Of a DNA stretch of 64,000 bases, positions 1,197 through 61,967 are shown piece by piece. The translations under genes were made by a program, and so were the position numbers. Source of the stretch: an uncultured archaeon (GTDB taxonomy: Archaea > Thermoproteota > Nitrososphaeria > Nitrososphaerales > Gagatemarchaeaceae). The notes under the pieces were generated by a model. That model had not been told where the DNA came from. It did not search any database and saw only the letters and a list, made by a program, of their open reading frames with translations. The stretch is taken from the NCBI GenBank assembly GCA_963799775.1, contig CAWCYD010000003.1, positions 480,001 to 544,000 on the forward strand. The letters are read 5' to 3'. How positions within the stretch are numbered: position 1 is the stretch's first letter; each line of letters opens with the position of its first letter.

Positions 1197-1228
1197 ACAG
1201 GAATCAAAAGAGCCGCCAGTAAAGTATG

Positions 1229-1681
1229 TCAGCCCGAGAGATAGCGCCCGAAGACTGCGAGGAGCTCCTCCCTGACCGCGCTGGGCTTGTTGGGACCGCC
1301 CAGCGTGACTATCGAAGACCTCACGATGTACGGGTGATGATAGATGAGTGACTCGGAGCCATATCGGGGAGTTGACATTACCAAGGCCCGAAGGAAACTC
1401 ATCTCCTCGAGGCTCAGCCGTGGATGAAAGGTCGCGGCCTCGTCCTCCCAATGACGGTCAAGGTCGAGCCTGGCGAGTCGTTTGGTCAACCGATTCACTT
1501 CGCGAAGTCTGGGGTAAAGCGGCTGCGCGCTGGCCAAGACCATGTCCGGCGCCATCACTCCCATTCGAGCCCAACTGCTCAGTTTCCCGACCTCATGAAG
1601 GATTCGGCGCCGCTCCAGGTAGAGAAGATCCTTCAGTAGACGAACCTGGCCGAAGGTGAGCTCGGGCCTTCGCGAGACCAT
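1229..1681 (-). CDS. Hypothetical protein
   Basis: 150-aa ORF co-oriented with ParB; no recognisable motif. Confidence 0.55.
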   Translation of the reverse strand: MVSRRPELTFGQVRLLKDLLYLERRRILHEVGKLSSWARMGVMAPDMVLASAQPLYPRLREVNRLTKRLARLDLDRHWEDEAATFHPRLSLEEMSFLRALVMSTPRYGSESLIYHHPYIVRSSIVTLGGPNKPSAVREELLAVFGRYLSG

Positions 1682-1737
1682 GCACTCTAAAACTCACGTT
1701 TGAATTGACGCTTGTTTGGTCGTTGGCCCCTTGCCCG

Positions 1738-2313
1738 CTATTGCGGGAAGACTATTGTTAGGTTGCCTGTCGTGGCATTCGTTTCAATAGAGAACCCAAT
1801 CGACGATGACTTGGCATTCTCCGACGTAACCCTCAAAGTTCCTGTGATTGGTGCTCCAGCGGCGCCTATCATGCGGGGAACCGCTGAGTACCCGGCCTCT
1901 GTCGGGGCCACAACCAATCCGTGACCGACAACAAGGGCGCAGAAATCAATCTCGCGCTGGTCTCCAACGTTGATGTCGACGGTCGCGTGACTCCCCACCC
2001 AAGAGAGCTGAAATCTCTCAGTGGCCCCCTCCAATTCCATCCACGCCGTACAGTTGCGCGCCGCATCGTTAAGCACCCATCTCTCTCGATTGATAACGGG
2101 AACCCTGATGGCTTGCAATATCACAGGCACGGTCCCTTGAATGACTGGACCGGGAGGCAGGAGGCCGGAGTAGAGATCGAAGTTAGGCAACAGCACCGTC
2201 GAAGAGTGACCGCGAATTCGTAGGACGGGCGACTTGAGCTGGTCGAAAAGAACTGCGAACGCGAACCCCGCTAACGCCCCCAGGAAAGCGGCGACTATCG
2301 TGAAATCTGCCAA
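1738..2313 (-). CDS. Hypothetical membrane-anchored protein
   Basis: N-terminal hydrophobic helix (IVAAFLGALAGFAFAVLF) followed by a beta-rich domain. Confidence 0.6.
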   Translation of the reverse strand: MADFTIVAAFLGALAGFAFAVLFDQLKSPVLRIRGHSSTVLLPNFDLYSGLLPPGPVIQGTVPVILQAIRVPVINRERWVLNDAARNCTAWMELEGATERFQLSWVGSHATVDINVGDQREIDFCALVVGHGLVVAPTEAGYSAVPRMIGAAGAPITGTLRVTSENAKSSSIGFSIETNATTGNLTIVFPQ

Positions 2314-2347
2314 GCCTCTCCTCGAGGGAGGTCCCTTTTACTTAACA

Positions 2348-3001
2348 ATGGCGACCACAAGGCGACCAAGACAGGACATCAAGGCAGACTCGAGGCTAGT
2401 CGAGCAGCTTGACGGCCTGAAGGAGGAGCTCGGGACGAGCTCCCGGACTTCGACGATTAGGAGGCTAGTCGTGCACTACAAGGAGAGCTCAAAGTCGAGG
2501 GAAGGCCTGCCAGTAGCCACGGCGTCGATTATGACAGATGACCGACCGGCTCTCATCACTGGATCGAGTGGAGCAGGAAAGACCACTACGATCAAGGCCC
2601 TCCTCGATGGTTGGGCCGGGCCTGTTTTCGCTTTGGACGTAAAGGGCGTCGACTATGTCGACTTCGAGAAACTCGACCTGGGAAAGGTCTCATCCTACGA
2701 GTGGGCCTCAGTGGATGGGCCTACAAGATTGCGCTTCACCCCCACCACGGAGCTCTCCGCGCAGGGGGAGTCAGAGGCGATCCTGCAGCTCCTGGCGCTG
2801 ATTCTTCACCAGGATGGGCACCCTTTGAAATCATGGGTGCTGATTCTGGAAGAGGGGCAAAGGTTCGCGAAGAACTCCAACTTCAAAGAAATCCTCTCGG
2901 AGGGACGCGTGTTCTGCAGGAAGATCCTCATCGCCTCCCAACTCTCAAGGCCGTTTCGAGAGCTGGTACCAGTGTACGTGCCTCCCCCGAGGCCTGTCTA
3001 G
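2348..3001 (+). CDS. Small FtsK/HerA-like P-loop ATPase with N-terminal ribbon-helix-helix-like segment
   Basis: Walker A GSSGAGKT, Walker B LILEEGQ, GR...IASQ motif; N-terminus DIKADSRLVEQLDGLKEELGTSSRTSTIRRLV. Confidence 0.7.
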   Translation: MATTRRPRQDIKADSRLVEQLDGLKEELGTSSRTSTIRRLVVHYKESSKSREGLPVATASIMTDDRPALITGSSGAGKTTTIKALLDGWAGPVFALDVKGVDYVDFEKLDLGKVSSYEWASVDGPTRLRFTPTTELSAQGESEAILQLLALILHQDGHPLKSWVLILEEGQRFAKNSNFKEILSEGRVFCRKILIASQLSRPFRELVPVYVPPPRPV

Positions 3002-3357
3002 GTCAGCAGGAAGTGCGCTTTTAGCAGCGTCTTCACTTCGGCAAGTTCTGTTGGGTTGAGACAACCAAACTTCTCCTTGATAAATCGGCCGTCCATCACT
3101 GTTACCTGAAAGACCAAGGCCACGGAGTCCTTGTCTAACCCGTTGACTGAGTGCTTTTTGATGGTGACAGTGAGAGGGAATCTTCTGGACTCAATGGTTT
3201 TAGTGAGCGGAATCACTGTAGCCATGTTCATCCCTGGGACCTTCGCAACTATGATCGCGGGTCGCTCTCCCGCCTGTTCGTGACCATCTCCTGAGAACTC
3301 TGCAAGCACTATATCCCCTATCGCGAAGCTGCCGACGTTGGGAGTCAGCGCTGGCAT
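2998..3357 (-). CDS. mazF: PemK/MazF family toxin
   Basis: GDIVLAEF..GHEQAGERPAIIV, VIPLT, NGLDKDSVAL motifs. Confidence 0.9.
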   Translation of the reverse strand: MPALTPNVGSFAIGDIVLAEFSGDGHEQAGERPAIIVAKVPGMNMATVIPLTKTIESRRFPLTVTIKKHSVNGLDKDSVALVFQVTVMDGRFIKEKFGCLNPTELAEVKTLLKAHFLLT

Positions 3358-3375
3358 TTTGTGTAACCGAGCTCT

Positions 3376-3912
3376 TTAGGCGGGTTGAGAGAGTATCGAG
3401 GCGGAACCGAGTCTCGTCCACGCAGAAAGCTCGTTCTTCAACTCGGGGGTGACATATTGCTCCTTGAACATCAGCTTCTTGGCGTCGTTCATGGATATGG
3501 TCAACTGCTCCTCGGAGAAGTTCTCCTTCCACAGCCTGAGTTTCTCCCTGATCCCTAACTCGTCCATCTTTGGATATGCATCGTACATCAGATAGACTGC
3601 ACTCGCAGCTCCTTCGAGCCTCGAGACCTCGATTGGCACACTCTCCTTGACGTGATTGAGGATTCTCTTCTGGGCTGCTGTGGGCTTCGGACTTTGGAGT
3701 GCCTGATATTCATCCCGATATATCCACATCTCCTTGTCGAGGTTCATGGAGTACGGGCCGCGACTGCGCCTCTCGAACTTGAAGTTGATTCCGAACCCCA
3801 GTTTCTTCAGGAGGTAGGTTATCTTCTGGATTACTATCCTGTCGTCTTGGCTGTCGATATTCGGTGCGAATCTCAGATACCCAAGTGCAGTGAGGATTTC
3901 GTCAGTTGCCAA
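3376..3912 (-). CDS. YwgA/Panacea(SocA)-like protein, probable antitoxin
   Basis: IQKITYLL and RGPYS motifs; directly upstream of mazF. Confidence 0.65.
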   Translation of the reverse strand: MATDEILTALGYLRFAPNIDSQDDRIVIQKITYLLKKLGFGINFKFERRSRGPYSMNLDKEMWIYRDEYQALQSPKPTAAQKRILNHVKESVPIEVSRLEGAASAVYLMYDAYPKMDELGIREKLRLWKENFSEEQLTISMNDAKKLMFKEQYVTPELKNELSAWTRLGSASILSQPA

Positions 3913-4510
3913 AGTAATCTTCCACGACTTCCAGCTTTTTGTATGGTTTTTACCGTATTAAGACTTTGTGAAGAAGGTGCCTCAGGTCCGGGGTTCAAAT
4001 GGTTAGGTTTTCGCCCCGAGCCCCTGGACGCCTCCTGGCTAACCTTAATACAGAATTCCCCGCACAAGGTGAGGAATGAGCAAGGAGGACTAAATTTACT
4101 ACTGTTCGAATCGTTGGTCCCCCCGAGGACGGATAGCCTGATTTCATGACTCAAGTTCGATTCTAACTGCTTGAGTTCAGATTTCCTATAAAGACCTCCG
4201 AATGACGTATAAATTGGGGAGAGCGGCGACAAAGCCGTGCCCGCCCTACGAATTCCTTGCGACGCGAGAAGAATGTCCAGGGCCTGCGAGAATGCCATTC
4301 ACGAAATCCCCGTCAGCATCGGGAATGGATCGGTTCAACAATGGGATGCCACTGCGGCGGAGATCTCGTTCTGGAGACATCTCACCAACGATCAACAGAA
4401 TGCTCTAGTTCAAAGCCAATACCAAGGGTGCTTCCTGTGCAACCTCGACTCGATGATGCCTTGAGCTGGCCTCTACAAGACTAAATAACGCGGCTGGCCG
4501 GAAACCACCG

Positions 4511-5152
4511 TTGGCGGCTCAGCAGGAACTTCTTCTCGTCGAAGTTGTCGCGGACAAGGACACTTGCACTTCGATTGAGAACGCGCTACAGAACTCGCAG
4601 TTCTTTCATTCCATCGAATCCCGCGAACCCTTGAAGTTTAGAGTGATCGCTCATCCAGTGGTTCTCGCAATGCTTCTCACTTTCCTTGAAACAAGGGCGG
4701 CAGCGATTTCTGGCAAGATTACGATGAACGATGGGACAGTCTATCAGCTGGACGCCTACGGGATGGATGAACTCAAGAAGGCGACAGCCAGAAAACTAGG
4801 GGCGACGCCATCAGCGACTCCCTCATCTCCTGGCCCTCAGACCGGTCCAAACGTCGTTGATCTATTCATGGCCGCCCTGAGCAATCCAGAGGCGACAGGG
4901 AAACTCGTGAAGGAAATCGCGAGTGCTTTGCGGGGAGATCCGGCAGTCGCGCTTGAGGAAACCAAGCAAATCTCCCGCTTCACGTTAGCGATCATGAGCC
5001 TAATGGCCGCCGTGATTATTGGGGCCTCAGTCCTGGGCTACTTTGGAAAGATCGGCGGCGACACCGTCGGCATAGTCTACGGGACAGTGATAGGCAGCTC
5101 CTTCGCGTTTCTCTACAAGTACCTTGGCGCACCTGAGGAAGGCCAATCCTAG
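4511..5152 (+). CDS. Hypothetical protein with two C-terminal TM helices
   Basis: Hydrophobic FTLAIMSLMAAVIIGASVLGYFG and VGIVYGTVIGSSFAFLY segments. Confidence 0.7.
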   Translation: MAAQQELLLVEVVADKDTCTSIENALQNSQFFHSIESREPLKFRVIAHPVVLAMLLTFLETRAAAISGKITMNDGTVYQLDAYGMDELKKATARKLGATPSATPSSPGPQTGPNVVDLFMAALSNPEATGKLVKEIASALRGDPAVALEETKQISRFTLAIMSLMAAVIIGASVLGYFGKIGGDTVGIVYGTVIGSSFAFLYKYLGAPEEGQS

Positions 5153-5157
5153 CAAAG

Positions 5158-6138
5158 TCAGGAGGCAGGCAGGGCCCGGCCGATACGTCGCTCATCGAGC
5201 TGGTACACTCCGTAGATGTCACCAAACAACGTATCACGATATTGCCAAGTGTTTGGAAGGGTCAAGGTCACGAAGAATTTCTGTCGAGTCACATGATGCA
5301 AATTGGAATACACGGCACGTCCTACTAGCACCTGATTCTTTTTTGCAATGCCGCAGATCTTGGCGGCGACGTTCATGGTGTAGCCTAGCAGATCTCTCGA
5401 ATTCTTGATGTCCTTCGACCCCAGCTCGACTATCTGGTTCTCGCCGCAATCGACACCAATTCTAAAGCCGATTTCCGGATAGCCTTGCTCGACCAGGGCC
5501 GGGATCAAGACCTCTCGCATGAACATCCAAGCGACGATAGCGCAGTCGCCTGCATTGTCAATCATTCCGGGGAAGTTCCTCTCGGCCGGGAAATACCCGA
5601 TTAATCCATCACCGGTGTACTTCAAGACATAACCTCTGTAGCCGTTTATCAGGAGAGTTATCTCGTGTGATAGGACTGTCACGATCTTGTTCATCTTTTC
5701 AGCACCTAGAGTTCTGCTCATCTCTGTCGAACCAACCAAATCGATGTAGAGAACAGCGAAGACCATCGTCTTGTCCTTGTTGAGCTCCAGGAAGTTCTCG
5801 GAAAGGTCGATTCCCCTCTCGATCTTTAATTCCTCTGACAGAAGTTGCTTGACTCTCGGCTTGGCTTCCTGAAAATACGCCGTAAGATCTTTGATGGTGG
5901 GTGGAGATTGTACGATTGGAACCTCCATTGAGCGCATCCACCCCTCGATCAATTCTTCTTCGAGTAGGACAATCTTGCTGCCCTTGTCACGCCAGGCCTT
6001 CTTGCCGTCCAAGTCAAACTGCTCGTATCTGGTCGGGTCGAGTTCGATTTCAAACCTCAACAGTCCCTTCTCTTTGTCTATGACCTCGACGTTCTTGATT
6101 TGAAGGTCGATTCGAAAGGGGCCCTTGCCGATTGGCAA
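5158..6138 (-). CDS. Class III adenylate/guanylate cyclase domain protein
   Basis: LYIDLVGST, KYTGDG, RIGVDCG, DLLGYTMNVAAK motifs. Confidence 0.9.
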   Translation of the reverse strand: MPIGKGPFRIDLQIKNVEVIDKEKGLLRFEIELDPTRYEQFDLDGKKAWRDKGSKIVLLEEELIEGWMRSMEVPIVQSPPTIKDLTAYFQEAKPRVKQLLSEELKIERGIDLSENFLELNKDKTMVFAVLYIDLVGSTEMSRTLGAEKMNKIVTVLSHEITLLINGYRGYVLKYTGDGLIGYFPAERNFPGMIDNAGDCAIVAWMFMREVLIPALVEQGYPEIGFRIGVDCGENQIVELGSKDIKNSRDLLGYTMNVAAKICGIAKKNQVLVGRAVYSNLHHVTRQKFFVTLTLPNTWQYRDTLFGDIYGVYQLDERRIGRALPAS

Positions 6139-6355
6139 CAGCTCTCATGAGATAGGGCTGATATTGAACTTTCAAATCCACAGGATTAATGACAGCGTGG
6201 ACAACCCGAAAACAGCCTAATCATGGACAAACAGAGATAGCGAGAGCGCCTTCAGAACAACGGGGGCGGAAGCTGGTTGTCCATGGCAAAACGCGCCGAA
6301 ATTGACCCATAATTGGCACAGGTTTTTAGACTCGTCTCGTCTTCTCTATTCCGCA

Positions 6356-6649
6356 ATGACGGGAAAAGTGAGCGAGAAAGAAATCATGGACAACGAATTT
6401 CAGCAGTGTCCATTCTGCGACAGACTCTTCGAGAAGTCCTACCGGATTGCGGTGACCACGGAGCTAGAGGAGCACATCAGAACACAGCACGGGAGGGTGA
6501 AGGTATGGCGGGGTCGAAACGTGCGGTGGTGCCCCGCCTCCGAAGTAAGAAAGAAAATGGCCAGGGCGCCCGACAGCGCCCAAGGCCCAGCAGAAGGTCA
6601 ACCGTTCAGGGCGGCCGATCCTTCACATGGCAAAAGCGAGCGAAGTTAG
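6356..6649 (+). CDS. C2H2 zinc-finger protein
   Basis: CPFC...EEHIRTQH. Confidence 0.7.
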   Translation: MTGKVSEKEIMDNEFQQCPFCDRLFEKSYRIAVTTELEEHIRTQHGRVKVWRGRNVRWCPASEVRKKMARAPDSAQGPAEGQPFRAADPSHGKSERS

Positions 6650-6890
6650 AGAAACGTCTTCGGAGCGTGACGAGCTCCGCGTTCGCAGGCCCTGGCCTCG
6701 CGTGCAGATAGAACTCGACGCGCACAATCAACCCTATCTCGCGCGATATCTCCACACCGAGACCGCCAAGCCGGCAGAACTCAGCGACGAAGTGCTGAGA
6801 CTCGCCAACGCATTGATGTGCCTTCGGCTCCCCAAGAGTCCGGCGAAGCGCCCAGAGGAGAGTAGCCCAGAGGAGAGTAGCCGCCCATGA
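6627..6890 (+). CDS. Hypothetical protein
   Basis: Overlapping operon-like ORF; contains a 15-bp tandem duplication (PEESS x2). Confidence 0.5.
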   Translation: MAKASEVRETSSERDELRVRRPWPRVQIELDAHNQPYLARYLHTETAKPAELSDEVLRLANALMCLRLPKSPAKRPEESSPEESSRP

Positions 6891-7084
6891 AAGGCAGAAT
6901 CTGCTTCGAAGCTGAAGCGGGCGACGTCGTAGAAGTAATGCGCCAAGGAAACGAGCTCGTTCCAGTACGCCATGAGGACTTGAAAGAGATGCGGGAACTC
7001 GCTGGCAAATACGAGACTCTGCGACAACTTCTCGGCCGGGATCCGCTCGAAACTTACCAGAAGAGGAAGTGGAGGGAGGTCTAG
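6887..7084 (+). CDS. Hypothetical protein
   Basis: ATGA overlap with the upstream ORF; directly before Rep. Confidence 0.55.
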   Translation: MKGRICFEAEAGDVVEVMRQGNELVPVRHEDLKEMRELAGKYETLRQLLGRDPLETYQKRKWREV

Positions 7085-7087
7085 CGC

Positions 7088-8863
7088 TTGACCGATGAGC
7101 CTGAGTCCAAGGCCGTGGAGCTGATTAGTATTGCAGAGGCCAGCTGCAGTTTCTTCACTGACCAGCACGGGACTCCGTACGCTTTTCGAAATAATCCTGG
7201 GCACGTCTCCGCGCTGAAGTCAAGGGAGTTCAAAGTTTGGCTAGTGGGGGAGTTCTACAAGAGGCATGAGGAGGCTGTCGGCAGCGACGCGATCTCCGCA
7301 GCGGTCAATGTGTTGGAAGCCAAGGCCAACGAATCAGCGCGCGTGACGCTGTCTACCAGGTGCGGCATGGATGGACCGAGAAGACTCCTGATCGACCTAG
7401 CCAGCAAAGACGAGCAGACGGTGGTCATTGACGCGGGTGGGCTCAGAATCGAATCCCTCGCTGAACCGAAGTTTCGAAGATACTCTCACATGGTCCCGAT
7501 GGAGGTCGCGGCGGACGCGGCTGACCTGAAAGAGTACGCGAAGTTCTGGAGGTTCAAGGATCCGGCCGATGACGTTTTGCTTGTGGGATTCATCGGTCAC
7601 GCCTTTGTAAGTGAGATTCCTCACGCAATCCTGGTCCTCATCGGTTCTAAGGGGAGCACGAAGACCACTGCGACAAGGGCGACGCGGCAGATTATCGACC
7701 CCAGCTCGGTCGCCGATCTCACGATTGGAGAGAAGGGCAAGGAGTTTGTTCAGCAGCTCGCGCACAACTACGTCCCCCTCTTCGACAACGTTTCGAAGCT
7801 GCAGCCCTGGCAGGCCGACGACCTCTGTAGAGCTTCGACCGGAGCAGGATTCTCCAAGCGCGAGCTCTACAGCGACGAAGACGATGTAATCTTCATGTTC
7901 AAGCGGGTCGTCATTGTCAACGGAATCAACACGCCGACCCAGAGGCCAGACTTCCTGGATCGAAGCATCCTAATTGAGTGTGCCAGGGTTCCGAGGGGAG
8001 AACGCCTCGAGGACAGCCAAGTCCAGGCGAAAATCTCGGAATGGATCCCTCGCCTCCGCAGGTCAATCTTCGAGGCCCTAGCAACAGCTACGCAGCTGAT
8101 TGACCAGGTCCGCGGAGAGCTGAAAGAGCTGCCCAGGATGGCGGACTTCGCGATATGGGGTGAGGCCTTCTGCAGGGCGTCCGGATACGCCCCTCTCGAG
8201 TTCTACAATCGCCTCATGGAGAAGGTCGACGAGACCAGCACTATAGCCCTCGAGAATGACGTGATCGCCGAGCTTCTCTTCAAACTCTTCGACGATCCGA
8301 AGAGTCTGACATACGGTTCCAAAGAGTTCGAGTGCACATCTAGTGAACTCCTCAAGACCCTTGTTGCCCTCAACGAGGAGCTGAAGTATGTAGGTCCGAA
8401 GGAACTTCCATCCTCACCGGATTCATTGGGTCGGCGCCTTGGGGAGCTCGCAGCCGACCTGGAGGAGGTGGGAATCAGGATCAGGCGTAACAGGTCCAGA
8501 AGGAAGCGCTCATACATCATCAGCAGGGTCTCCCCCAGAGGTAGCGAAGAAGCGTCACACGTGTCACTAGTGTCACCCACGGTGGGCCCAAACGGGGGCC
8601 AAAATGACACTTCTGTGACACGTGACGCTTCAAAACAGACTCCGATTGAAACCCCAGTGACACATGACGCTAGTGACACATGTTCGCTACCTCTAGGGGG
8701 GCAGGGGTTAGCAGCGAAGTCCAAGGCCAGCATTCCCCATTTCTTCTGCTCAGTCTGTGGCAAGGAGATAGGGACGGGCCTTGAGCTCAGCATCTACAAG
8801 ATAGGGAAGGAAAGGTTCTGCAAGGCCTGCTACCTCGAGAAGAAAGGGGAGGCCTCGGCATGA
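7088..8863 (+). CDS. Replication helicase-like P-loop ATPase (SF3-like) with C-terminal wHTH and Zn finger
   Basis: LVLIGSKGSTKT, LFDNVS, TG.GFSKRELYSD, NGI...RPDFLDRS; terminal CSVC...CKAC. Confidence 0.8.
   Translation: MTDEPESKAVELISIAEASCSFFTDQHGTPYAFRNNPGHVSALKSREFKVWLVGEFYKRHEEAVGSDAISAAVNVLEAKANESARVTLSTRCGMDGPRRLLIDLASKDEQTVVIDAGGLRIESLAEPKFRRYSHMVPMEVAADAADLKEYAKFWRFKDPADDVLLVGFIGHAFVSEIPHAILVLIGSKGSTKTTATRATRQIIDPSSVADLTIGEKGKEFVQQLAHNYVPLFDNVSKLQPWQADDLCRASTGAGFSKRELYSDEDDVIFMFKRVVIVNGINTPTQRPDFLDRSILIECARVPRGERLEDSQVQAKISEWIPRLRRSIFEALATATQLIDQVRGELKELPRMADFAIWGEAFCRASGYAPLEFYNRLMEKVDETSTIALENDVIAELLFKLFDDPKSLTYGSKEFECTSSELLKTLVALNEELKYVGPKELPSSPDSLGRRLGELAADLEEVGIRIRRNRSRRKRSYIISRVSPRGSEEASHVSLVSPTVGPNGGQNDTSVTRDASKQTPIETPVTHDASDTCSLPLGGQGLAAKSKASIPHFFCSVCGKEIGTGLELSIYKIGKERFCKACYLEKKGEASA
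8549..8680. repeat. TGAC(A/G)C iteron-like array, candidate element origin
   Basis: Three G(C/T)GTCA copies at 9-bp period (8552, 8561, 8570) face six TGAC(A/G)C copies (8605-8674); 10-bp perfect IR GAAGCGTCAC/GTGACGCTTC. Confidence 0.65.
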
Positions 8864-9051
8864 GCCTAACGAGTCCTCGAGCTGAGATCTACTACTGCGA
8901 AGGGTGCGGGTCGCCCAGTGAACCGGTAAGGTGCCTACGGAACATTCCACGAAGGGTCGTCGTCCTCGAGGCTTCGGCCAGGACGTACGGAGTCATTTGG
9001 AGCTTCTTCTGCCGCAGGTGCGAGGCGCGAGAGAGGAGCCGCAGATCATGA
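8860..9051 (+). CDS. Small Zn-binding protein
   Basis: CEGC...CRRC; ATGA overlaps on both sides. Confidence 0.55.
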   Translation: MSLTSPRAEIYYCEGCGSPSEPVRCLRNIPRRVVVLEASARTYGVIWSFFCRRCEARERSRRS

Positions 9052-9533
9052 CCGCCCAGGAATCCGTGCCGAACGCCGGTCGGTATCTTTGCCCAAAGTG
9101 CTCGGAGGTGCCCTTGAGCTCGTCCTAGAAACCGGCGAGCTTGTCTGTCCTCAGTGCGGCATTGCGTTCGAAGACCCTGGCGCGAAGATCCTGAGGTTCG
9201 TCCCAGAGGGGAGCTCGATCAACTCGCCCGGAATGGTCCACGGGCTTGGAACGGACCAGCGCGAGCTGATTCGCCAATTCCATGCGTTAGGGATGAAGAA
9301 CGGAGGCGCTGAGAGGCCGGACGGCTACATGCTCTCCATAAATGGACCTTTGGAGCGGCCACAGCGACGATTCATTTTGGATTTCCATCACGCAGAAGCT
9401 CAAGGACAGAGGAATGAGCCCCGAGAGGATTGCCCTTGTCAGCGCGGTGCTTAGGAAGGAGATCGCTCACATGAACGCCCAGAAGACCGCAGAGTTGCAA
9501 ACCTTGCTCCGACAGATGGGGATTGACCCTTGA
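9048..9533 (+). CDS. TFIIB-type Zn-ribbon protein (two frameshifts)
   Basis: CPKC...ETGELVCPQCG after joining frames; ends ...RQMGIDP. Confidence 0.6.
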
Positions 9534-10281
9534 TTCAGGAGATCTCTCTCGCTGATAGACCCGAACCCGTTTCAGTCGCGGGAGCCAGACGAGGGAGACG
9601 AGCTCCGTTCTGTGAAGGAGCTAGGCATGCTCAGAGTCGCCCTGATTGTCAGGCCGAGCTCCGTTGCTCAAGGACGTTTCCAACTGGCATTCGGACACAG
9701 GACCATCCAGACCCTCAGGAAACTAGGTCGAATCTACGTCCCCTGTGAAGTCCGATCCTTGAGCGACCGTGAGATGGCCAAGATGCTCCACGTCGAAAAC
9801 GAAGACAGGAGGGGACTCAGCGACGCAGAGCGAGGCCGATTCTATCAGCACTACATGAAGGACTTTGGCCTGTCAACCAGGGAGCTCGAGCGAGAGCTCG
9901 GCGTCGACCAAGGCAGCATCGTCAGGTGCGTCGGGATTGCCGACACCGCAAAGGCGATGGAAGGCTCCATCAGCGAGCCTCTTTCACGAGCGTTCGAGTA
10001 CGCCGTCACGGAGATCAAGTACAAGGAAGCCTCGAAGCTGAAGGACGAGGCGAAGAAGGTTCAGGTCCCTCGCCCAAGTTGCGGAGCATGACCTGAGTAG
10101 CGATCTGACGAAACTGCTGGTCGCAAAGGCCCAAGCAGGGATGACCGTGGCCGAGGCGGCGGCTGAGGTGGTAAACCTCAGGGAGGCCCGGAAATCCGAA
10201 TCGTACGCAGAGAGGAGAAGGCGGGTCGAGTGTCCCACGTGCAAGGGAGCCGGATTCATTTTGAGGGATGAGAAGGCTTGA
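9530..10281 (+). CDS. ParB/Spo0J-domain protein (frameshifted)
   Basis: SVKELGML..LIVRP..FQLAFGHR..ENEDRRGLS..HTH; C-terminal CPTCKG. Confidence 0.8.
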
Positions 10282-10323
10282 GCGAGCAGGACTACGTCAG
10301 GGTGCCGAGGTCCGAGCTCGCCG

Positions 10324-11565
10324 CTATTCTTTCTGACCTCGAGCGCCTGAGGAAGCTGGTTGAGAAGACTCAAGAGAAGCAATCCTCTTCTGAAGGCTCA
10401 CGATGAGCTCCATCATGGGCTTCAGCTCCTTGTCCTTCTCGTCCCTAGCTATCGCCTCGTTGAAATCAAGTGAGACGTGCGGCTCGATCCTGAGATAGGC
10501 CTGTCTCAGGTCTTCGGGATGGACCTGGTCTCTGTCGTCGTAGACGGCCGCGATCCCTCCTTCGTGCCCCATCATCTCCTCGACGAAAGCGGACTTCACC
10601 CCGCAGTGCTCGGCTTCGGTCTTGAAGCTGTGTCGCAGCATGTGGCTCCTCCAGCTCGAGGGTTCTCCGTTCTCGACCATCCCCTGGGCGTGCATCCTCA
10701 AGGCGATCTTCCTCATTTGCTGATTGAGCCACTTTGGGTCGACTCCGGAGCCCTGTAGCTTGCCGGCAAATACCAGGTCAGAGGGCAGGGGTTCTCGCGC
10801 CATTTCCTCCGCCCATCGCTGCCGGAGGAGCCTCAAGTGCTCGATAGAGTCGCGCCCGAGGAACGTGTACCATGGTTTCTTGTGATTCTTCCTTCCCAAG
10901 AACGAGAGCTTCAGTGGATGATCCGCCCTGCGAAGGCCCTCGTCGATGTCCTTCCAACGCAACCCGAGGATCCTGTTGACCTCGCAGCTCGACTGCCAAA
11001 CTAGAAGCAGCGGCGTCCGTATCTGCAGGGGGAGGGCCTTCAGCACCTTGCGGATGTCCTCCGAGCTCAGGGGCTTGTCTCGCGGCTCCCCGTCCGACTC
11101 CGCTATCCTCACCTCCCCGAACAAAGGGCTGTCGTTCCGCTCGTACCACTTCTTGACCGTCGACGCCGCCCCCGCCCTGTAGCTCATCGCGTACCCCTCG
11201 AGCTCCTTGTTGACGAAGGTCTCGAGCCATTCCCGGTGCTTCCTCTTCTGCGCGACGTCCTCCGCCTCCGACCGGTAGATGCACCTCAGATTGTCCGTGA
11301 TGAGCTCGTCGGGCGCCAGGTTCGTCGTCCCCGACCCCTTGAGCCACCTGAAGTACAGCAGGAGGTGGAGCGAATACACGGATTGCACCCTCACCTTCCC
11401 GTAGGAGCTGAGGAATCGCTTCACCGCCTCGCTTGGCCCTATCTTCCTTAGGTTGTTCTCGAGAGCTTTCTGGGCTCTCCGGATGACGGTCGGAGTGCTC
11501 CGACCCGCCTCGATTGCCGTTGCTTGCATGTTCCTATCAGTAAAAGCCTTCTTGGTTGTGGACAT
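10324..11565 (-). CDS. Tyrosine recombinase/integrase
   Basis: HMLRHSFKT, MMGH...Y, GLRWKDI. Confidence 0.9.
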   Translation of the reverse strand: MSTTKKAFTDRNMQATAIEAGRSTPTVIRRAQKALENNLRKIGPSEAVKRFLSSYGKVRVQSVYSLHLLLYFRWLKGSGTTNLAPDELITDNLRCIYRSEAEDVAQKRKHREWLETFVNKELEGYAMSYRAGAASTVKKWYERNDSPLFGEVRIAESDGEPRDKPLSSEDIRKVLKALPLQIRTPLLLVWQSSCEVNRILGLRWKDIDEGLRRADHPLKLSFLGRKNHKKPWYTFLGRDSIEHLRLLRQRWAEEMAREPLPSDLVFAGKLQGSGVDPKWLNQQMRKIALRMHAQGMVENGEPSSWRSHMLRHSFKTEAEHCGVKSAFVEEMMGHEGGIAAVYDDRDQVHPEDLRQAYLRIEPHVSLDFNEAIARDEKDKELKPMMELIVSLQKRIASLESSQPASSGARGQKE

Positions 11566-11616
11566 TTGCCCCCGCCACGTTTATATTGGTTCTTGCGCCA
11601 ATTGGCACTCACGGGC

Positions 11617-15570: not shown

Positions 15571-15612
15571 TCACGCCTTCGACTGGACGCGCTTCTGCAC
15601 CGAGTACATCTC
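15571..15612 (-). repeat. Displaced copy A of ligase 3' end (EMYSVQKRVQSKA*), probable original end
   Basis: GAG ATG TAC TCG GTG CAG AAG CGC GTC CAG TCG AAG GCG TGA; host-like GC-ending codons; about 30 bp from the convergent slipin stop. Confidence 0.9.
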
Positions 15613-15715
15613 TAGTATTGCAGAGAAGGCCGAGAGCAATCATGGCCGAGGCGGTTTCAGTAGCACCGTTACGGCGGTTTTCTCTATCAAGCTCTAAGCT
15701 TTAGGAGCATACTTG

Positions 15716-16288
15716 CTAGCTCGACAGAGTGAGAATCGTCTGAGAAGAGTATCCGCCGATGTATAGATCAAGAGTGTACTCGCCCGCCGTGATGAGAACG
15801 CCGTTTGATGTGGTAACAGCGTCCCAAGAGGTGTTCCATGAATACGACTCCCCTCGGCCTAGCGAAACCTGCGAAAGTGGGGAAATCTGCTGGTGGAAGA
15901 CAACGCTCCCTTGCTCGTTCGTGATTGTCATGTTAGAGAAGGATACCTGTGCGCGAGAAGTTGAATTGTCGTTCACGAGAATCCCCTCGAAACTCACAAC
16001 GCTGCCCACCTTCGCCACCTCTGAAAAGCACGTGATTAGAGTCAGACCTGCGGCAAAAGTGCTGGACTCGTTTTGCCCCGACGGACACGTCGGCAACCCC
16101 GTCGCCGAACCCACAGTCGCTGAAACTGTAATCGCACTGCTCGTTGCTCTAGCAGCCGAGGCACCCGTTGAGGTAGAAGCTAATGGCGTCGTTGTAAGGG
16201 ACCCTGTCGTTGTCACATCACTACCACCGCTGCCCGAAAGATTGGATAGGACGAGCACGCCAGTAGTCACAATCAGGGCAACCACCAC
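15716..16288 (-). CDS. Membrane-anchored Ser/Thr-rich protein with BsuPI/Ig-like C-terminal domain (start uncertain)
   Basis: N-terminal TM, S/T linker, LGRGESYSWNTSWD...AGEYTL. Confidence 0.6.
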   Translation of the reverse strand: MVVALIVTTGVLVLSNLSGSGGSDVTTTGSLTTTPLASTSTGASAARATSSAITVSATVGSATGLPTCPSGQNESSTFAAGLTLITCFSEVAKVGSVVSFEGILVNDNSTSRAQVSFSNMTITNEQGSVVFHQQISPLSQVSLGRGESYSWNTSWDAVTTSNGVLITAGEYTLDLYIGGYSSQTILTLSS

Positions 16289-16391
16289 AACAATGACAAT
16301 CTTGTTCAGGGTTAATCACACGCGCACCATTCTTGCGGTAGAGCCTGTGGTTGAATTGGGGAATCCTTCGGGATAAAGTCTTCGGACTTTC

Positions 16392-16436
16392 CTACTGTTG
16401 TTTGGATTGGACTCGTTTTTGTAGACCGTACATCTC
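16392..16436 (-). repeat. Ligase 3' end copy B (EMYGLQKRVQSKQQ*)
   Basis: GAG ATG TAC GGT CTA CAA AAA CGA GTC CAA TCC AAA CAA CAG TAG. Confidence 0.9.
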
Positions 16437-16464
16437 TAGCAATGCGTTCGACTGGCGGTTGATT

Positions 16465-16677
16465 CTACTTTTCCATCTTGTCTTTTGCCAAAAAGCTCCA
16501 AGACAGCAAGATTAATCCGAAAACAAGAAAAATCAAACCGGAATAAAGATAACCGTAATCATGAATGGGACCAGTGCAACGCCCCTGACAGAAAATCTCG
16601 TAGGGGTAGCCCACAATCATAATGTAAATTCCAAATAATGAAAGCAGAAGGCCGATGACTAACAATGATATTCTCAA
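16465..16677 (-). CDS. Small two-TM protein with Cys-pair loop (cargo)
   Basis: Two hydrophobic helices around CQGRC. Confidence 0.7.
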   Translation of the reverse strand: MRISLLVIGLLLSLFGIYIMIVGYPYEIFCQGRCTGPIHDYGYLYSGLIFLVFGLILLSWSFLAKDKMEK

Positions 16678-16699
16678 GATTGGCTACCTCTCGACTGTT

Positions 16700-16786
16700 C
16701 TACTCTTTGCTAGCGTTCTGAATAAGTGCTATCCACCTGTTCAAGGATTCCGGGCAGGCTATCTTCGGTCCTCAGGGCACGCTCAT
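16700..16786 (-). pseudogene. Internally deleted DDE transposase remnant
   Basis: In-frame MSVP*GPKIACPESL-NRWIALIQNASKE*; WxxLIQNA resembles the C-terminus of archaeal IS6-like DDE transposases. Confidence 0.55.
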
Positions 16787-16827
16787 TGTTGTTTTGATTG
16801 GACGCGTTTCTGTAAACAATACATCTC
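16783..16827 (-). repeat. Ligase 3' end copy C (EMYCLQKRVQSKQQ*)
   Basis: GAG ATG TAT TGT TTA CAG AAA CGC GTC CAA TCA AAA CAA CAA TGA. Confidence 0.9.
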
Positions 16828-16865
16828 TCCCTGATTCTTATGGCTGTAACATATCGGCGGAAGTC

Positions 16866-17102
16866 TCAGGGTTTTCGCCCTAACTGGACATTCTCGTCTA
16901 TAGTGAGTTCGTGTTCGTAGTCGGCATCTTCGTATCTTATCATTTGGCCTCCAACGGCAAGAATTGCACCCTGTTTGAACTGCATTCTCCTCCTGATGAC
17001 TTGTGGCTCAAGCACTTCGATCTCTGCCGGATGCTCTGCTAGGAACAGTGTCCATCCCTCGCCGAGATACTGGCCGACTTTGTGCAATGTGAGATACGTC
17101 AT
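16866..17102 (-). CDS. Hypothetical protein or gene fragment (cargo)
   Basis: 78-aa ORF; frame stays open upstream past one TGA, so it may be a remnant. Confidence 0.45.
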   Translation of the reverse strand: MTYLTLHKVGQYLGEGWTLFLAEHPAEIEVLEPQVIRRRMQFKQGAILAVGGQMIRYEDADYEHELTIDENVQLGRKP

Positions 17103-17245
17103 TCATTGCGACCGAGGATACTCAATCCAATTTGGGTCAAGCACGAGTTCCGTGAAGCTGATGAAAGTAGTCGCGCGACCCTGCATGAAGTTAAGCAATT
17201 GCGGATTGATTTAGCCTTGGTGGCCGGCTTAATCATGCGCCGGAT

Positions 17246-19015
17246 TCACTTTTGTTTTGATTGGACGCGTTTTTGTAATCCATACATCTCGACCAGCTCC
17301 TTCACGGTCGTCGCGTCTTCCGGCCCCTTCTCGTCGCGTATCTTGCCCGTGAACTTCGGGAACCTCAGGGCGAGGCCGCTCCCCTCCCTCATCTTGTTCA
17401 TCGCCGCCGGGTGGACGGGGGAGAGGGTTATCTCCGAGGCGATCGTCTCTATCACGACCTTGGGCCTGTACCAGACGTCCGGCACCAGCTTTGATTCCAC
17501 GTTCGGCGGTCTGACCAGGCTCTCGTAAGGCTTCAGCAGCTTTGGGAACCTCTCCAAGTCCGCGTCTGAGAAGCCGGTCCCTATCTTCGTGACGCTCGGG
17601 AACGTCTTCTTCTCCGAGTCGTACGCGGCGAGCAGGTAGGCACCGTAGACTCCCGCCCTCCTCCCCCTGCCGTGGAAGGCACCGATTATCGCCAAGTCTA
17701 TCGTGTCGGTGAGCTCGCTGCTGTACTCGCGCTTCAGCTTGATCCAGCCGAACTCCCTGGCCCCGGCCCGGTATGTCCCGTCGGGCTTCTTCGCCATTAT
17801 GCCCTCGCAGCCCTCGGTGATCGCAAGCTCCATGAACTTCTCCATCTCGTCGGCGGTCTCCACCATCTTCGACGGCACGGGACGCGTGAACTCCGTCACC
17901 TCGACTATCCTCTGGAGCTCCGCCCTCCGCTTCAGGTATGGGAGCGACGTGATGTCCTTCCCGTCCACGTAGAGGGCGTCGAAGAAGTTGACGGCGACGG
18001 GGTACTTCTTCATGGCCTCCTCGATGCCGTGCTTCCTCCTCCTGTGCATGAGCTCTTGAAACGGAAGGTACTCGTTGGTGTCCGGGTTGATCGCGACCAC
18101 CTCGCCTTCGAGCACGGCGCGCTTCGACTTTACGTGGTCTCTTACGAAGCGGACGACGTCCGGGTAGTTGGCGGTGATCCTCTCGAGCCTCCTTGAGAAG
18201 ACGTCGACCTTCTCCCCGTCCTTGTGCATCTGGAGCCGCTCCCCGTCCAGCTTGTACTCGACGGCCACAGGCTTGCCTATCTGGTCGAGTATCGCCTGGG
18301 CCGAAGGCAGCCTCTCGGCGAGCATGGGCCTTATCGGCTTGCCGACCTCCAGGTGGATCTTCTCGACCCCTGCCAGGCCCTCCCCTGCCGCGACCTCCAC
18401 CACGTATCCGAGGTCGGAGGTGACGTTGTACGCCCTCTCGAGCGCCTTCCTGTTTGTCTTGCCCCCGAGGTGGGCGACGGCCACAGCGTCCAGGATGGTG
18501 TAGTCCGCGACCCCGAGCCGAAGGACGCCCATCGCGGTCCTGAGGATGTACTTCGCCTCGAGCGGCGTCGCGTCGTTCAGCAGGCTCACTAGCTCTCTGA
18601 GCTTCGACTCCACCGAGCCGCCGCCGCTCGTCTTCGCTATCTTGAGCAAGGACTCGTAGACCCTTCTGAGCGTGAGCGGCTCCGCGACGAGGGGCCCCTG
18701 CCTCGCGCCGCCGCCGGAGGAGAGCAACGCCTGTCCCGCGCTACCGATGTCACCGGCCTTGATGTACGCCTCTCTCACCTTCTCAGGAGACTTTCCTGAA
18801 GCGGTCGAAAGGGCCCGGAGCGCGAACTTCTCGGCGATGCCTAGCTCTATGCCCTCGTAGTCCGGACGGAGCTTCCCCTGCATGAGGTACACGAGGGTCG
18901 GGAGCTCGGCCTTGGGGGTCTCCTTGAAGAGAGAGGCAAGGATATCGGTCATCTCCAGCCTTCCCTGCGTGCCCTCCAGCTTCTCGAAGTATTCTGCGAC
19001 GAGCGAGTACTTCAT
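17246..19015 (-). CDS. lig: ATP-dependent DNA ligase
   Basis: EYKLDGER, EGIMAK, WIKLKREY, LRFPKF; last codons (copy D, 17246-17290) switch to AT-rich usage. Confidence 0.97.
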   Translation of the reverse strand: MKYSLVAEYFEKLEGTQGRLEMTDILASLFKETPKAELPTLVYLMQGKLRPDYEGIELGIAEKFALRALSTASGKSPEKVREAYIKAGDIGSAGQALLSSGGGARQGPLVAEPLTLRRVYESLLKIAKTSGGGSVESKLRELVSLLNDATPLEAKYILRTAMGVLRLGVADYTILDAVAVAHLGGKTNRKALERAYNVTSDLGYVVEVAAGEGLAGVEKIHLEVGKPIRPMLAERLPSAQAILDQIGKPVAVEYKLDGERLQMHKDGEKVDVFSRRLERITANYPDVVRFVRDHVKSKRAVLEGEVVAINPDTNEYLPFQELMHRRRKHGIEEAMKKYPVAVNFFDALYVDGKDITSLPYLKRRAELQRIVEVTEFTRPVPSKMVETADEMEKFMELAITEGCEGIMAKKPDGTYRAGAREFGWIKLKREYSSELTDTIDLAIIGAFHGRGRRAGVYGAYLLAAYDSEKKTFPSVTKIGTGFSDADLERFPKLLKPYESLVRPPNVESKLVPDVWYRPKVVIETIASEITLSPVHPAAMNKMREGSGLALRFPKFTGKIRDEKGPEDATTVKELVEMYGLQKRVQSKQK

Positions 19016-21819: not shown

Positions 21820-22116
21820 TTGGTGACAGTTGCAGCCTCTAAAGATAAGAAACGTGGAAAGCGCGCCGCAGAAGAAGGCTTCGAGATACTCATCGGCCCG
21901 CAAAAGCTCACCAGGTTCGAGAAGGCGAGGATAGTCGGAGCAAGGTCCCTCCAATTGGCGATGGGCGCCCCGGCGTTCGTCCCGATCGACGAGAGCGTCA
22001 GAGACTCGATCGCGCTCGCGATGATGGAGCTGGCCAGCGACGCCCTGCCGATATCTATCCGCCGGTCGCTTCCGAACGGCAACTCGCAAGACATCCCGAT
22101 AAAATACCTGCTCTGA
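21820..22116 (+). CDS. rpoK: RNA polymerase subunit K/Rpo6
   Basis: LTRFEKARIVGARSLQLAMGAP, LPISIRR. Confidence 0.95.
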   Translation: MVTVAASKDKKRGKRAAEEGFEILIGPQKLTRFEKARIVGARSLQLAMGAPAFVPIDESVRDSIALAMMELASDALPISIRRSLPNGNSQDIPIKYLL

Positions 22117-23386
22117 GCGGCGAGACTCGGTTCCGGTCGATTTCTTCGGGCTCTGTCAACTCTTCGGCTAATGATGCCTTGGAGCCAACTTGCCTGGCAT
22201 CTGCTCCTGGGATTACCGTAGTCGCCGGGTTCCCATTCATCGCTTCACATGCAGGCCCTTTCGCCTCCTCCTGAGAAGGAGGGTGCAGGGAACTGGCAAG
22301 CCTTGACAGCCCCCTATCCGCCAGATTGGCCACCGCGTTGCCGTCACGGTGAACCCATACCTTGCACCTCCCGCACCAGAGGTGTCTCTTGTGTCTGAGG
22401 TCGCCTCTCGCCGGTCTGCGGAGCTTCTCCCCGCATGCTGAATGGATGGACGATGAGCCTCTGGTCTCCGCCTTCGTCAGCTTGATGACGGTCACTCCCC
22501 TGATTGCCGCCTTGTAGCCCAGCATCTCGTACTGTCTTCTGTGAGGCCACGCGTTCATCCTGAACCTATAATCTCGACCTTTCCCGTTCCCCTTCCGATA
22601 CATCTTGTTGATGCCTGAGATGTCCTCGAGCGCCATCGCAGCTCCAATGGACCTCGCGCTCTCGACTATCTGGTTCGTCGCAAGATGGAGTATCTGAGTC
22701 GTCTTGTCGTTCGCCCTCTTCCAGTACTTTTGCGCGAGCAGTCTCCTGATTCGCATGTCGTCCCTCTTGAACGAGCCCAGGATCTCCCTGGTCGTCTGCT
22801 TCACCTTGACTATTCGTGACAGGTCGATTTCCTCGAACCCTCCCCGATCACCATACGTGAGGTTCTTCTCGTTCCTGTCCACACCGATCACCAGCCTTGG
22901 CTCGATCGACTCGACCTCAGAGGAGTAGCATATCGCGACCCTGTCCTCAGTGAGGGTCAGGCTCCTCATCTTGACGCCGGGTTTGGAGACCTTCGAGAAG
23001 GCATACGTGTTGAGCTGCACCATCTCGAACGTGTGATGCCCGAGAGAGACGAACAGCTTGCCCGTCACGGTCACGAAGAATCCCCTGACTATGCAGGCGG
23101 CGAGCTTCAGCGGCGTTCTATGTCTGACCCTGACGCCTCTCCTGTCGCTCTTCCACCTGCTTCTGAGGACGGCGCATGCGCGAGTGATCACTGCAACCTT
23201 GAAAGACGACGGGAGGTCCACGTCGCGGATCGATCGGTAGAACCCATTCATCTGTCCCCTGTTGTTGATACGGTTGCTCTCAGCGTACTGGATCGCGTTG
23301 TATGTCAGGGGCCTACACTGAGAGAGGATATCACGAATAAGAGCGCTGTCGTGAGGCTGCCACACGGAGAGCGTCGCGAGGGACAT
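22055..23386 (-). CDS. tnpB: RNA-guided endonuclease TnpB (ORF reads through right end)
   Basis: RuvC IGVDRN, ALEDI, HRDGNA; Zn finger HSAC...CGRC. Confidence 0.9.
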   Translation of the reverse strand: MSLATLSVWQPHDSALIRDILSQCRPLTYNAIQYAESNRINNRGQMNGFYRSIRDVDLPSSFKVAVITRACAVLRSRWKSDRRGVRVRHRTPLKLAACIVRGFFVTVTGKLFVSLGHHTFEMVQLNTYAFSKVSKPGVKMRSLTLTEDRVAICYSSEVESIEPRLVIGVDRNEKNLTYGDRGGFEEIDLSRIVKVKQTTREILGSFKRDDMRIRRLLAQKYWKRANDKTTQILHLATNQIVESARSIGAAMALEDISGINKMYRKGNGKGRDYRFRMNAWPHRRQYEMLGYKAAIRGVTVIKLTKAETRGSSSIHSACGEKLRRPARGDLRHKRHLWCGRCKVWVHRDGNAVANLADRGLSRLASSLHPPSQEEAKGPACEAMNGNPATTVIPGADARQVGSKASLAEELTEPEEIDRNRVSPLRAGILSGCLASCRSEATGG

Positions 23387-23419
23387 GCGCTGAAAAGTGC
23401 CTAGAGTAAATAAGCGCCC
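22149..23419 (-). mobile_element. TnpB-only (IS1341-like) element 1
   Basis: Left end GCAT|GGGCGCTTAT and right end GACAGAGCC shared with two other loci. Confidence 0.75.
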
Positions 23420-23513
23420 ATGCTGCCTCGGGCCGCATCTTGTCCTGAGTTGAAGACTACGAAGTCTTTCTTCGGTAGGCATAAATAGCCAAAGACCGGC
23501 GAACAGCGCGACA

Positions 23514-23891
23514 ATGTCAACCAAAGTCACCGCAAAACGACAGCCCAGGTCCAAAGACGAGGAGAGGACAGAATCTCCTTCCCAAGAAGCACCCGCAATG
23601 GCACCTATGCACGAAAGGGGGCCATCGAACCACATCTACGTGGGAAAGAAGCCAGTGATGAGCTACGCGATGTCAGCGCTCATCCAGCTCTCCCAAGCCG
23701 GCGAGGTCAACATCAAGGCAAGAGGCCTCGCAATCAGCAGAGCCGTCGACGTGGCGGAGATCGTAACAAAGAGACTGGGCAATGGAACCTTCTCTGTGAA
23801 GAACATCAACATCACCACAGAGCAAGTGAAGAGCACCGAGACAGGCGAGATGAGGAACGTCTCCTCAATCGAGATCCTAGTAGGCAAGTAG
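23514..23891 (+). CDS. albA: DNA/RNA-binding protein Alba
   Basis: IYVGKKPVMSY, KARGLAISRAVDVAE, NVSSIEI. Confidence 0.95.
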   Translation: MSTKVTAKRQPRSKDEERTESPSQEAPAMAPMHERGPSNHIYVGKKPVMSYAMSALIQLSQAGEVNIKARGLAISRAVDVAEIVTKRLGNGTFSVKNINITTEQVKSTETGEMRNVSSIEILVGK

Positions 23892-52238: not shown

Positions 52239-52322
52239 TCCCTCTTCGATCTTTGTGAACCCCGACTCCTCCCGTTGACCGACCGCGACCGCCAAATCCT
52301 ATAAAACTCTTCGAGCGGCTCT

Positions 52323-61435: not shown

Positions 61436-61720
61436 CTAAGTAACCTGTGGCCCGCCGCAACCGAAATACAGGTTGCTCCCATTCGTCGTGACTTGGGGCG
61501 AGTATGAGTCGCCGAGAAAGAACCCGTTAGAGCTGTCTCCTGTTAGATAGCAGCTAAGCGAGATTGTAAAGTGTATCATGCCCTCTGGACACGTGCCTGC
61601 GAAGTAGCAAGGCAGTTGTATCGAACCCGGCTCTGAGCTTGGAATGAAAGGGAGAAAGAGAAAAAGCGCAAGTGCCAAAATGGCTACGGCCATGAGAGCT
61701 ACCTTCTGTCTCTGTCTCAA
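61436..61720 (-). CDS. Small membrane-anchored Cys-containing protein (cargo)
   Basis: N-terminal TM, four Cys; overlaps the transposase stop. Confidence 0.65.
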   Translation of the reverse strand: MRQRQKVALMAVAILALALFLFLPFIPSSEPGSIQLPCYFAGTCPEGMIHFTISLSCYLTGDSSNGFFLGDSYSPQVTTNGSNLYFGCGGPQVT

Positions 61721-61880: not shown

Positions 61881-61967
61881 CCTTCACATCACCCGACCAT
61901 TGGACAGGCCACCCCGATTGAGATATCAAACTTTAAGGACTGGGTTGGAATGGCCGGGTAAATCGCG

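Follow-up and report, generated by a model that had tools for sequence, protein, structure and literature searches.

Att-type site-specific recombination has likely placed three small, nonautonomous cassettes in succession in the 3' end of a gene for an ATP-dependent DNA ligase, and the piece of an IS6-family transposase gene carried by one of them would then be a passenger. The gene belongs to an uncultured archaeon of the Nitrososphaerales (Gagatemarchaeaceae) and lies in the window, the whole stretch of 64,000 nucleotides (nt) that was analyzed.

Ligase gene, tail copies, and cassettes

The ligase gene (17246-19015, minus strand) encodes 589 amino acids with the Pfam domains DNA_ligase_A_N, DNA_ligase_A_M, and DNA_ligase_A_C (E values of 8e-41, 7e-58, and 3e-16, respectively), and at its 3' end the final stretch of ~45 nt occurs four times in direct orientation. 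A degenerate 35-nt pattern of this tail matched the minus strand of the window at 15578, 16402, 16793, and 17256, with no match expected in 100 shuffles, and a search of the 2.47-Mb genome with the tail pattern gave no fifth match elsewhere. Tail copy A (17246-17290, minus strand; pattern match, repeat families, and alignments) is attL-like and comprises the core GAGATGTA and, after it, a tail of the element type with the codons for YGLQKRVQSKQK and a stop codon; read in the ligase sense (17290-17246), the encoded end is EMYGLQKRVQSKQK, closed by the stop. Copies B (16783-16827) and C (16392-16436), both on the minus strand and recognized by repeats, pattern, and alignments, are internal att-like sites that encode EMYCLQKRVQSKQQ and EMYGLQKRVQSKQQ, each with a stop codon, and the attR-like copy D (15571-15612, minus strand; pattern, alignments, and synteny) encodes EMYSVQKRVQSKA and a stop codon. 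The repeats are 64 to 82% alike, with synonymous differences; codon use is GC rich and host-like in copy D and AT rich in copies A to C, and the synteny of the host with its relatives resumes at copy D. Copy D is the displaced native tail of the ligase gene, and the last 13 codons and the stop codon that the gene now possesses come from cassette 1. The suggestion of the first-pass annotation that the inserted DNA repairs its target gene was sound, in that each cassette brings the last 12 to 13 ligase codons and a stop codon.

Between the outer tail copies A and D, the GC content falls from about 0.62 to 0.40 to 0.55, and the array is flanked by the ligase gene on one side and by a stomatin/NfeD pair on the other. 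The four tail copies bound three low-GC cassettes of 349 to 782 bp, each with one plausible open reading frame (ORF) on the strand of the ligase gene, the minus strand. Cassette 1 (16828-17245; GC content, 0.50), defined by repeats, composition, and Pfam, contains an ORF of 78 amino acids to which Pfam assigns no known family (16866-17102). Cassette 3 (15613-16391; GC content, 0.53), delimited on the same grounds, contains a Ser/Thr-rich ORF of 190 amino acids with an N-terminal hydrophobic segment (15716-16288; Pfam scan), and a search of the array DNA against 401 genomes of the class matched this cassette near 16078-16107 to one foreign genome, G557 (30 nt; 90% identity). Cassette 2, the middle cassette (16437-16782; GC content, 0.44; repeats and composition), has a 70-amino-acid ORF from the ORF list, with a TTG start and two hydrophobic stretches (16465-16677). 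This ORF is an orphan whose status as a gene is uncertain: Pfam gave just subthreshold matches to membrane proteins, and a comparison with 5.8 billion proteins returned one near-identical sequence of 51 amino acids and nothing more. The 9-bp sequence TTCGACTGG, which occurs in cassette 2 (16447-16455, plus strand) and in the native tail (15578-15586) and had been put forward as a match to the original target, does exist, but at least one such match arises in 1,393 of 5,000 shuffles of the array, and it is at chance level.

Related arrays and the point of crossover

Among 401 genomes of the order, the tail pattern is confined to this genus. A stricter, element-type pattern was found in the genomes G017 and G022 and on four metagenome contigs, all four of which are arrays. 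Six arrays with ten cassettes (3, 2, 2, 1, 1, and 1) were counted; the five beyond the window hold two cassettes each in G022 and on metagenome contig L031 and one each in G017 and on L032 and L033. A seventh locus, in G020, was left out of the cassette counts and inspected for size and synteny only; an element-like tail is followed there by about 1.3 kb of extra DNA of normal GC content and then by the stomatin synteny, with no second tail-like copy seen at the locus. Three relatives (G011, G018, and G006) have an empty site, and the one in G011 is what results when copy A contributes the left half and copy D the right. The element-type tail appears to be fixed and altered in G017 (L015 11865-11951), where it reads through to an end in KQPNEADKGAGRISSPKS and the native copy has decayed, and in G020 (L090 near 7182), where it reads GLQKRSQSVQR and a stop and the native copy was not found.

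Cargo differs in every array, and the tails alone match between arrays. The cassettes measure 0.35 to 2.3 kb and are mostly filled by intact-looking ORFs, with 4 of 12 cargo ORFs in the opposite orientation. A Pfam scan of 131 six-frame pieces of at least 45 amino acids from the six arrays identified HicB/HicA, a winged-helix protein, a DUF6114 membrane protein, an IS5-like transposase, an ice-binding-like protein (E value, 5e-77), and an isochorismatase (E value, 1e-43), in addition to orphans. The ice-binding-like domain is part of a secreted-looking protein of 351 amino acids in a cassette on L031 (8408-9460, minus strand), and the neighboring cassette encodes an HTH_45 winged-helix protein. 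The IS5-like transposase, the sole cassette transposase apart from the IS6 sequence in the window, lies in the second cassette of the G022 array (L014 4927-7216), where an element of about 1.07 kb interrupts hicA in a hicB-hicA pair. This element has 16-bp inverted repeats (TAGCCTGTAGCTTAAT), a 9-bp duplication (CCGAGACAT), and a frameshifted transposase gene, and two dispersed copies of it are present in the genome studied here; it is plainly a secondary insertion. The window itself contains an intact IS5-like transposase gene (52404-53294, plus strand; DDE_Tnp_1 and DDE_Tnp_1_5), an element with four copies in this genome and about 85% identity to a copy in G017, which adjoins fragments of an aspartyl/asparaginyl-tRNA synthetase-like gene (51186-52295). 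Two further ORFs in the window with a Cas12f1-like TNB domain (22058-23635, minus strand, and 58281-58883, plus strand) look like TnpB-type transposon-associated nucleases.

The only sequence common to the ten cassettes is the tail mimic, which encodes the same 12 residues, MYGLQKRVQSKQ, in nine of them. The ten element-type tails vary at 9 sites, of which seven are third codon positions and none is a second position; with changes mostly in third positions and the same residues in 9 of 10 cassettes, the mimic has therefore been kept under selection as the coding end of the ligase. Six fixed differences separate element-type from native tails, none of which comes earlier than nt 8 after the ATG, and in all five arrays for which both ends are available, the ligase-proximal tail is wholly element type and the last tail is wholly native. 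Because the tails are unmixed and their differences begin at nt 8, every crossover must lie in or just beside GAGATGTA. In their left arms, the cassettes have only (A)G in front of ATGTA in common, and each distal junction likewise ends at this boundary between (A)G and ATGTA. Direct repeats derived from the target are thus present at both ends, the empty site is a hybrid, and the crossover falls within a short common core; the cassette junctions are imperfect direct repeats of ~45 nt, not short identical target duplications beside inverted repeats. Junctions of this pattern are characteristic of att-type site-specific recombination with a short overlap. DDE transposition of the cassettes would have given short identical duplications and inverted ends, unlike the junctions here, and homologous recombination would have scattered the crossovers along 45 nt, unlike those seen.

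A version of the latter process, in which no dedicated recombinase took part and DNA of relatives entered by homologous or microhomology-mediated recombination at the conserved 3' end of the ligase gene, finds a possible foothold in the GAGATGTAC codons (E-M-Y), which almost every genus member examined has kept in its ligase gene and which could act as a short homology patch. It is nevertheless quite improbable, given that the crossovers all fall within the same stretch of at most 10 nt despite a similarity of about 70% over 45 nt and that the distal junctions keep to the same boundary; moreover, the element-type tail is the native tail of no other genus among the 401 order-level genomes, and the ten genomes of the genus with other tail types hold a single tail copy each.

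By att-type recombination, each cassette would contribute one recombination site, composed of the core GAGATGTA (with GATGTA common to all) and the tail mimic of about 37 nt, which corresponds to the last 12 to 13 codons of the ligase gene plus the stop codon. Strand exchange in the core would join the ligase body to the tail of the cassette, so that the enzyme would stay whole, and the previous tail would be pushed downstream and remain as the next repeat as the array grows. From this comparative anatomy, we infer that single cassettes would be mobile.

The IS6-family remnant in cassette 2

On the minus strand, an ATG at 16786-16784 overlaps the TGA at 16785-16783 that ends tail copy B; the frame that it opens reads MSVP and a stop and continues as GPKIACPESLNRWIALIQNASKE (16771-16703) to a further stop at 16702-16700, after which comes the 70-amino-acid cargo ORF (16677-16465). 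These features are as the first-pass annotation had described them, and the resemblance of the peptide to IS6-like DDE transposases that it pointed out is true, since three foreign IS6 genes match by their 3' ends at the DNA level. The search of the array DNA against the 401 class-level genomes gave four foreign matches in all, three of which cover window positions 16703-16742 with 84 to 86% identity over 35 to 39 nt, come from genomes that are all low in GC (locus GC content, 0.37 to 0.40), and sit without exception at the 3' ends of IS6-family transposase genes. The three genes matched an IS6 HMM of our own building (E values of 5e-69, 6e-71, and 2e-43) and the Pfam family DDE_Tnp_IS240 (PF13610; E values of 4e-18 to 3e-15), and their products have the C termini NKWITVIQNASKE, NKWVAVIQNASK, and NKWITIIQNASN (in longer form, GITIEGNNKWITVIQNASKEVIS with the stop, ITIEGQNKWVAVIQNASKV, and GIEVKGDNKWITIIQNASNK). 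When one of these transposases was compared with the array by tblastn, PSEACGITIEGNNKWITVIQNASKE paired with PKIACP, three gap positions, and ESLNRWIALIQNASKE at 56% identity over 25 amino acids. The 3'-terminal remnant of an IS6-family transposase gene, with an encoded end in PKIACPESLNRWIALIQNASK, accordingly spans 16707-16771 (minus strand; DNA search and tblastn), and its homology may reach 16783 when read across a frameshift.

The genome has two IS6 copies of its own, found with PF13610. By Smith-Waterman alignment, the peptide falls on the GWKALVENATRKE motif in their C termini, with scores reached by 12 and 25 of 5,000 shuffles. Against a profile of 120 relatives of these more distant copies, the peptide scored 0.9 bits, ranking 14th among 2,276 six-frame pieces, and its frameshift-joined form (with X) scored 3.0 bits, about 58th among 121,284 joined pieces. 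By the own-copy alignment and the profile alone, the match is not distinguishable from chance; the homology is clear because the closer, low-GC IS6 genes were used. On the basis of these DNA and protein alignments, the putative remnant is a true one, left by the gene of an archaeal IS6-like DDE transposase. The stretch KIACPE, previously read as the start of a CPxC finger, aligns with a C-terminal PSEACGI stretch and not with the N-terminal zinc-finger region, and the supposed translational coupling to the ligase stop was not borne out, in that the ATG opens a frame of just 4 codons.

About the last 22 to 25 codons of the IS6 gene survive, possibly about 36 across the frameshift, and a deletion has therefore removed most of that gene; its truncation is proof that cassette 2 lost about 1 kb or more by deletion, and in this the earlier idea of collapse by internal deletion was right. 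We suggest that the ancestor of cassette 2 contained an IS6 element, of whose gene a later deletion, reaching as far as the stop codon that ends tail B, would have spared only the last ~65 to 77 nt. The left end of this IS6 copy is gone. The remnant abuts the stop codon of tail B exactly and has the orientation of the ligase gene; such exact abutment is not predicted by random deletion, and it could be explained by selection against deletions that harmed the then-active tail or by a short similarity between the tail end and transposase codons, a putative one seen in a single alignment. The homology to IS6 copies ends at 16707, and that among 13 related IS6 copies ends at the equivalent point. 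In the low-GC IS6 genes (L055, L056, and L058) and in window positions 16707-16724, the 17 to 18 nt of DNA that encode the terminal IQNASK are nearly invariant; the rest of those elements is 66 to 71% identical, far below this stretch, and homology stops right after it, and this DNA may act in cis as an IS end overlapping the gene. A second, clearer remnant of an IS6 transposase C terminus lies in the window at 61720-61932 (minus strand; profile positions 233 to 278; E value, 2e-10).

According to the first-pass annotation, the cassettes are the work of a target-specific transposon whose IS6-like DDE transposase starts at the ligase stop codon (ATGA), which repairs the ligase gene and which later collapsed. 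A real IS6 3' remnant directly after the tail B stop codon, in ligase orientation, speaks for this, and the survival of the gene end alone means that a deletion did occur. IS6-family elements, moreover, build arrays of units next to existing copies, as in the translocatable units of IS26, and this array-building habit is a further point in its favor. IS6 sequence, however, is found in 1 of the 10 cassettes of the six arrays and is not repeated within the array of the window; the bounding repeat is the ligase tail and not an IS end, and in neither the window nor the left ends of the related copies was an inverted copy of the conserved 18-mer IS6 end found at up to 4 mismatches. The target-site duplication of the IS6 family is short and identical, at 8 bp. 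The repeats here share 64 to 82% of their positions, and no identical short duplication accompanies them. No ligase gene or tail is nearby at the 13 related IS6 loci in the three low-GC genomes (37.9 kb), and the two own IS6 copies sit away from the ligase gene. Cassette 2 thus resembles IS6/IS26 elements in holding a homologue of the last codons of Nitrososphaeria IS6 transposases, but the DDE_Tnp_IS240 catalytic domain is absent from it, and a DDE domain was found by neither Pfam nor the IS6 profile in any six-frame piece of the window's array. With the four-codon frame and the C-terminal position of KIACPE also against it, mobilization by the DDE transposase is barely credible, and the IS6 piece is probably a truncated secondary insertion, carried by one of the cassettes and not their mover. 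The resemblance over 23 residues was true homology, yet the transposase is not thereby the mobilizer. The first-pass annotation had itself named what would speak against its proposal, and of this the origin of the peptide in a secondary IS is what was found; full-length ligase-inserted elements encoding only a tyrosine or serine integrase were not, no full-length element having come to light.

Candidate recombinases and known mobile systems

Since the cassettes have no recombinase gene, one would have to act in trans, and the common core of 6 to 8 bp makes a tyrosine recombinase probably the most likely kind. A recombinase was recognized in none of the ten cassettes, nor was any fragment of one among the 131 six-frame pieces scanned with Pfam, and the element-encoded integrase that belongs to att-type elements is to this extent lacking. 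The genome encodes five tyrosine recombinases, and no link to the site could be made for any of them. The closest integrase, the tyrosine integrase at 10327-11565, lies 4 kb from the array and was not accepted as part of it, as it belongs to a separate insertion of 26.6 kb with its own short junctions. This insertion (G000 C3:464945-491576), present relative to G022 and G017, has its right part at window positions 1-11576, encodes the 413-amino-acid integrase at its right end (minus strand) and a MazF/PemK-like toxin gene at 3001-3357, and has short junction repeats, if any. In G022, two ORFs of the tyrosine recombinase region are without a close homologue here, and one neighboring ORF has a match; they too were set aside. 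The public sequencing data consist of low-depth short contigs from one soil run, in which the cassettes are mostly uncovered and joints are absent; neither a circularized, excised cassette nor an array variant short of a cassette came to light.

A Xer/dif-like site was not supported, as no dyad of the 11-6-11 type exceeded shuffles in the att region. The lack of dyad symmetry is unusual for the core sites of tyrosine recombinases. The archaeal dif paper (PMC2958812), in the part drawn on here, gives no thaumarchaeal site. Integron-like hairpins fared no better, all eight internal-site strands folding no better than shuffles (z scores of -0.30 to +1.64). The array is akin to integron cassettes in that its units are small, mostly of one gene, and without a recombinase of their own, with one recombination site per unit, and in that arrays occupy one chromosomal site and carry cargo that is unrelated from array to array. 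It differs from them in that no integrase gene with an attI site adjoins the array, the sites do not fold as attC hairpins, the site lies within the coding end of an essential gene, and cargo ORFs are in part reversed.

Closer parallels exist within the phylum. As described in the portion of Krupovic et al. 2019 (PMC6563490) used here, integrated elements of Thaumarchaeota with tyrosine recombinases enter the 3'-distal part of protein-coding genes, which holds for 14 of 68 elements, with the element supplying a new stop codon, and tandem reuse of an integration site is known. In that portion, the DNA ligase gene is missing from the named targets and the only ligase is phosphoribosylamine-glycine ligase; a literature search gave no paper on integration into the DNA ligase gene of an archaeon. 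The array thus shares with these elements the phylum, the 3' end of a protein gene, the new stop codon, the direct repeats at the ends, and possible tandem reuse; in contrast, the elements in that portion of the study have their own integrase and are much larger, whereas the cassettes are of 0.35 to 2.3 kb, lack a recombinase, and end in imperfect tail mimics. The same portion reports that the 3' end of ef-2 in Nitrosopumilus has received casposons in tandem. These belong to the same phylum and, like the cassettes, are tandem insertions into the 3' end of an essential gene; they differ in having Cas1, a polymerase, terminal inverted repeats, and true target duplications, the Pfam scan having detected no Cas1, polymerase, or recombinase family in the cassettes, whose repeats are nonidentical.

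Bacterial CIMEs offer a further comparison. In the section of the review of streptococcal ICE/IME systems drawn on here (PMC5704250), CIMEs and site-specific accretion occur at the 3' end of target genes, and the definition given there, retention of attL and attR with no integration or transfer genes, describes the cassettes. Both are att-flanked units that form tandem stacks at the end of a target gene; CIMEs, according to that section, are bacterial and have a documented decay from ICEs, whereas the cassettes are without a known parent and each restores a coding tail. The same att-type recombination could accordingly have acted on larger integrase-bearing elements, of which the cassettes would be collapsed remnants produced by CIME-like decay and subsequent accretion. 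That is the standard bacterial route to tandem att-flanked remnants in the section cited, thaumarchaeal elements with an integrase that insert at the 3' ends of protein genes, also in tandem, are at hand (PMC6563490, in the portion used), and the truncated IS6 gene shows that cassette 2 suffered a large deletion. The decay origin nonetheless has rather less than even chances when set against the lack of a recognizable recombinase fragment, the small size of all cassettes with their mostly intact-looking ORFs, and the lack of any large member of the cassette family in 23 genomes of the genus or in the collection scans. Among viral contigs, two scans found no match to the tail mimic, genome contigs matched in G017 and G022 only, and phage and plasmid collections contained no tail-bearing phage or plasmid; viral, genome, and metagenome contigs and these collections yielded no tail mimic on an element that was free or had an integrase.

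We give only a slight edge, at likewise less than even chances, to an origin in which the cassettes were born small, a host or helper recombinase moving units of 0.35 to 2.3 kb in and out of the ligase gene in an archaeal system in trans, because recombinase debris is absent and the units are uniformly small and ORF filled. If they were born small, one clade of a soil Nitrososphaerales genus would maintain a variable array of accessory genes. If serial att-type insertion is correct, an essential replication gene in relatives of ammonia oxidizers would serve as a docking site for the swapping of accessory genes, among which a toxin-antitoxin pair, an ice-binding-like protein, an isochorismatase, and small membrane proteins have been seen. 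The mobile units would keep the enzyme intact through a selected replacement C terminus without encoding a recombinase, and the idea of cassettes moved in trans, as in integrons, CIMEs, and Xer-exploiting elements, would extend to archaea and to a coding attachment site.
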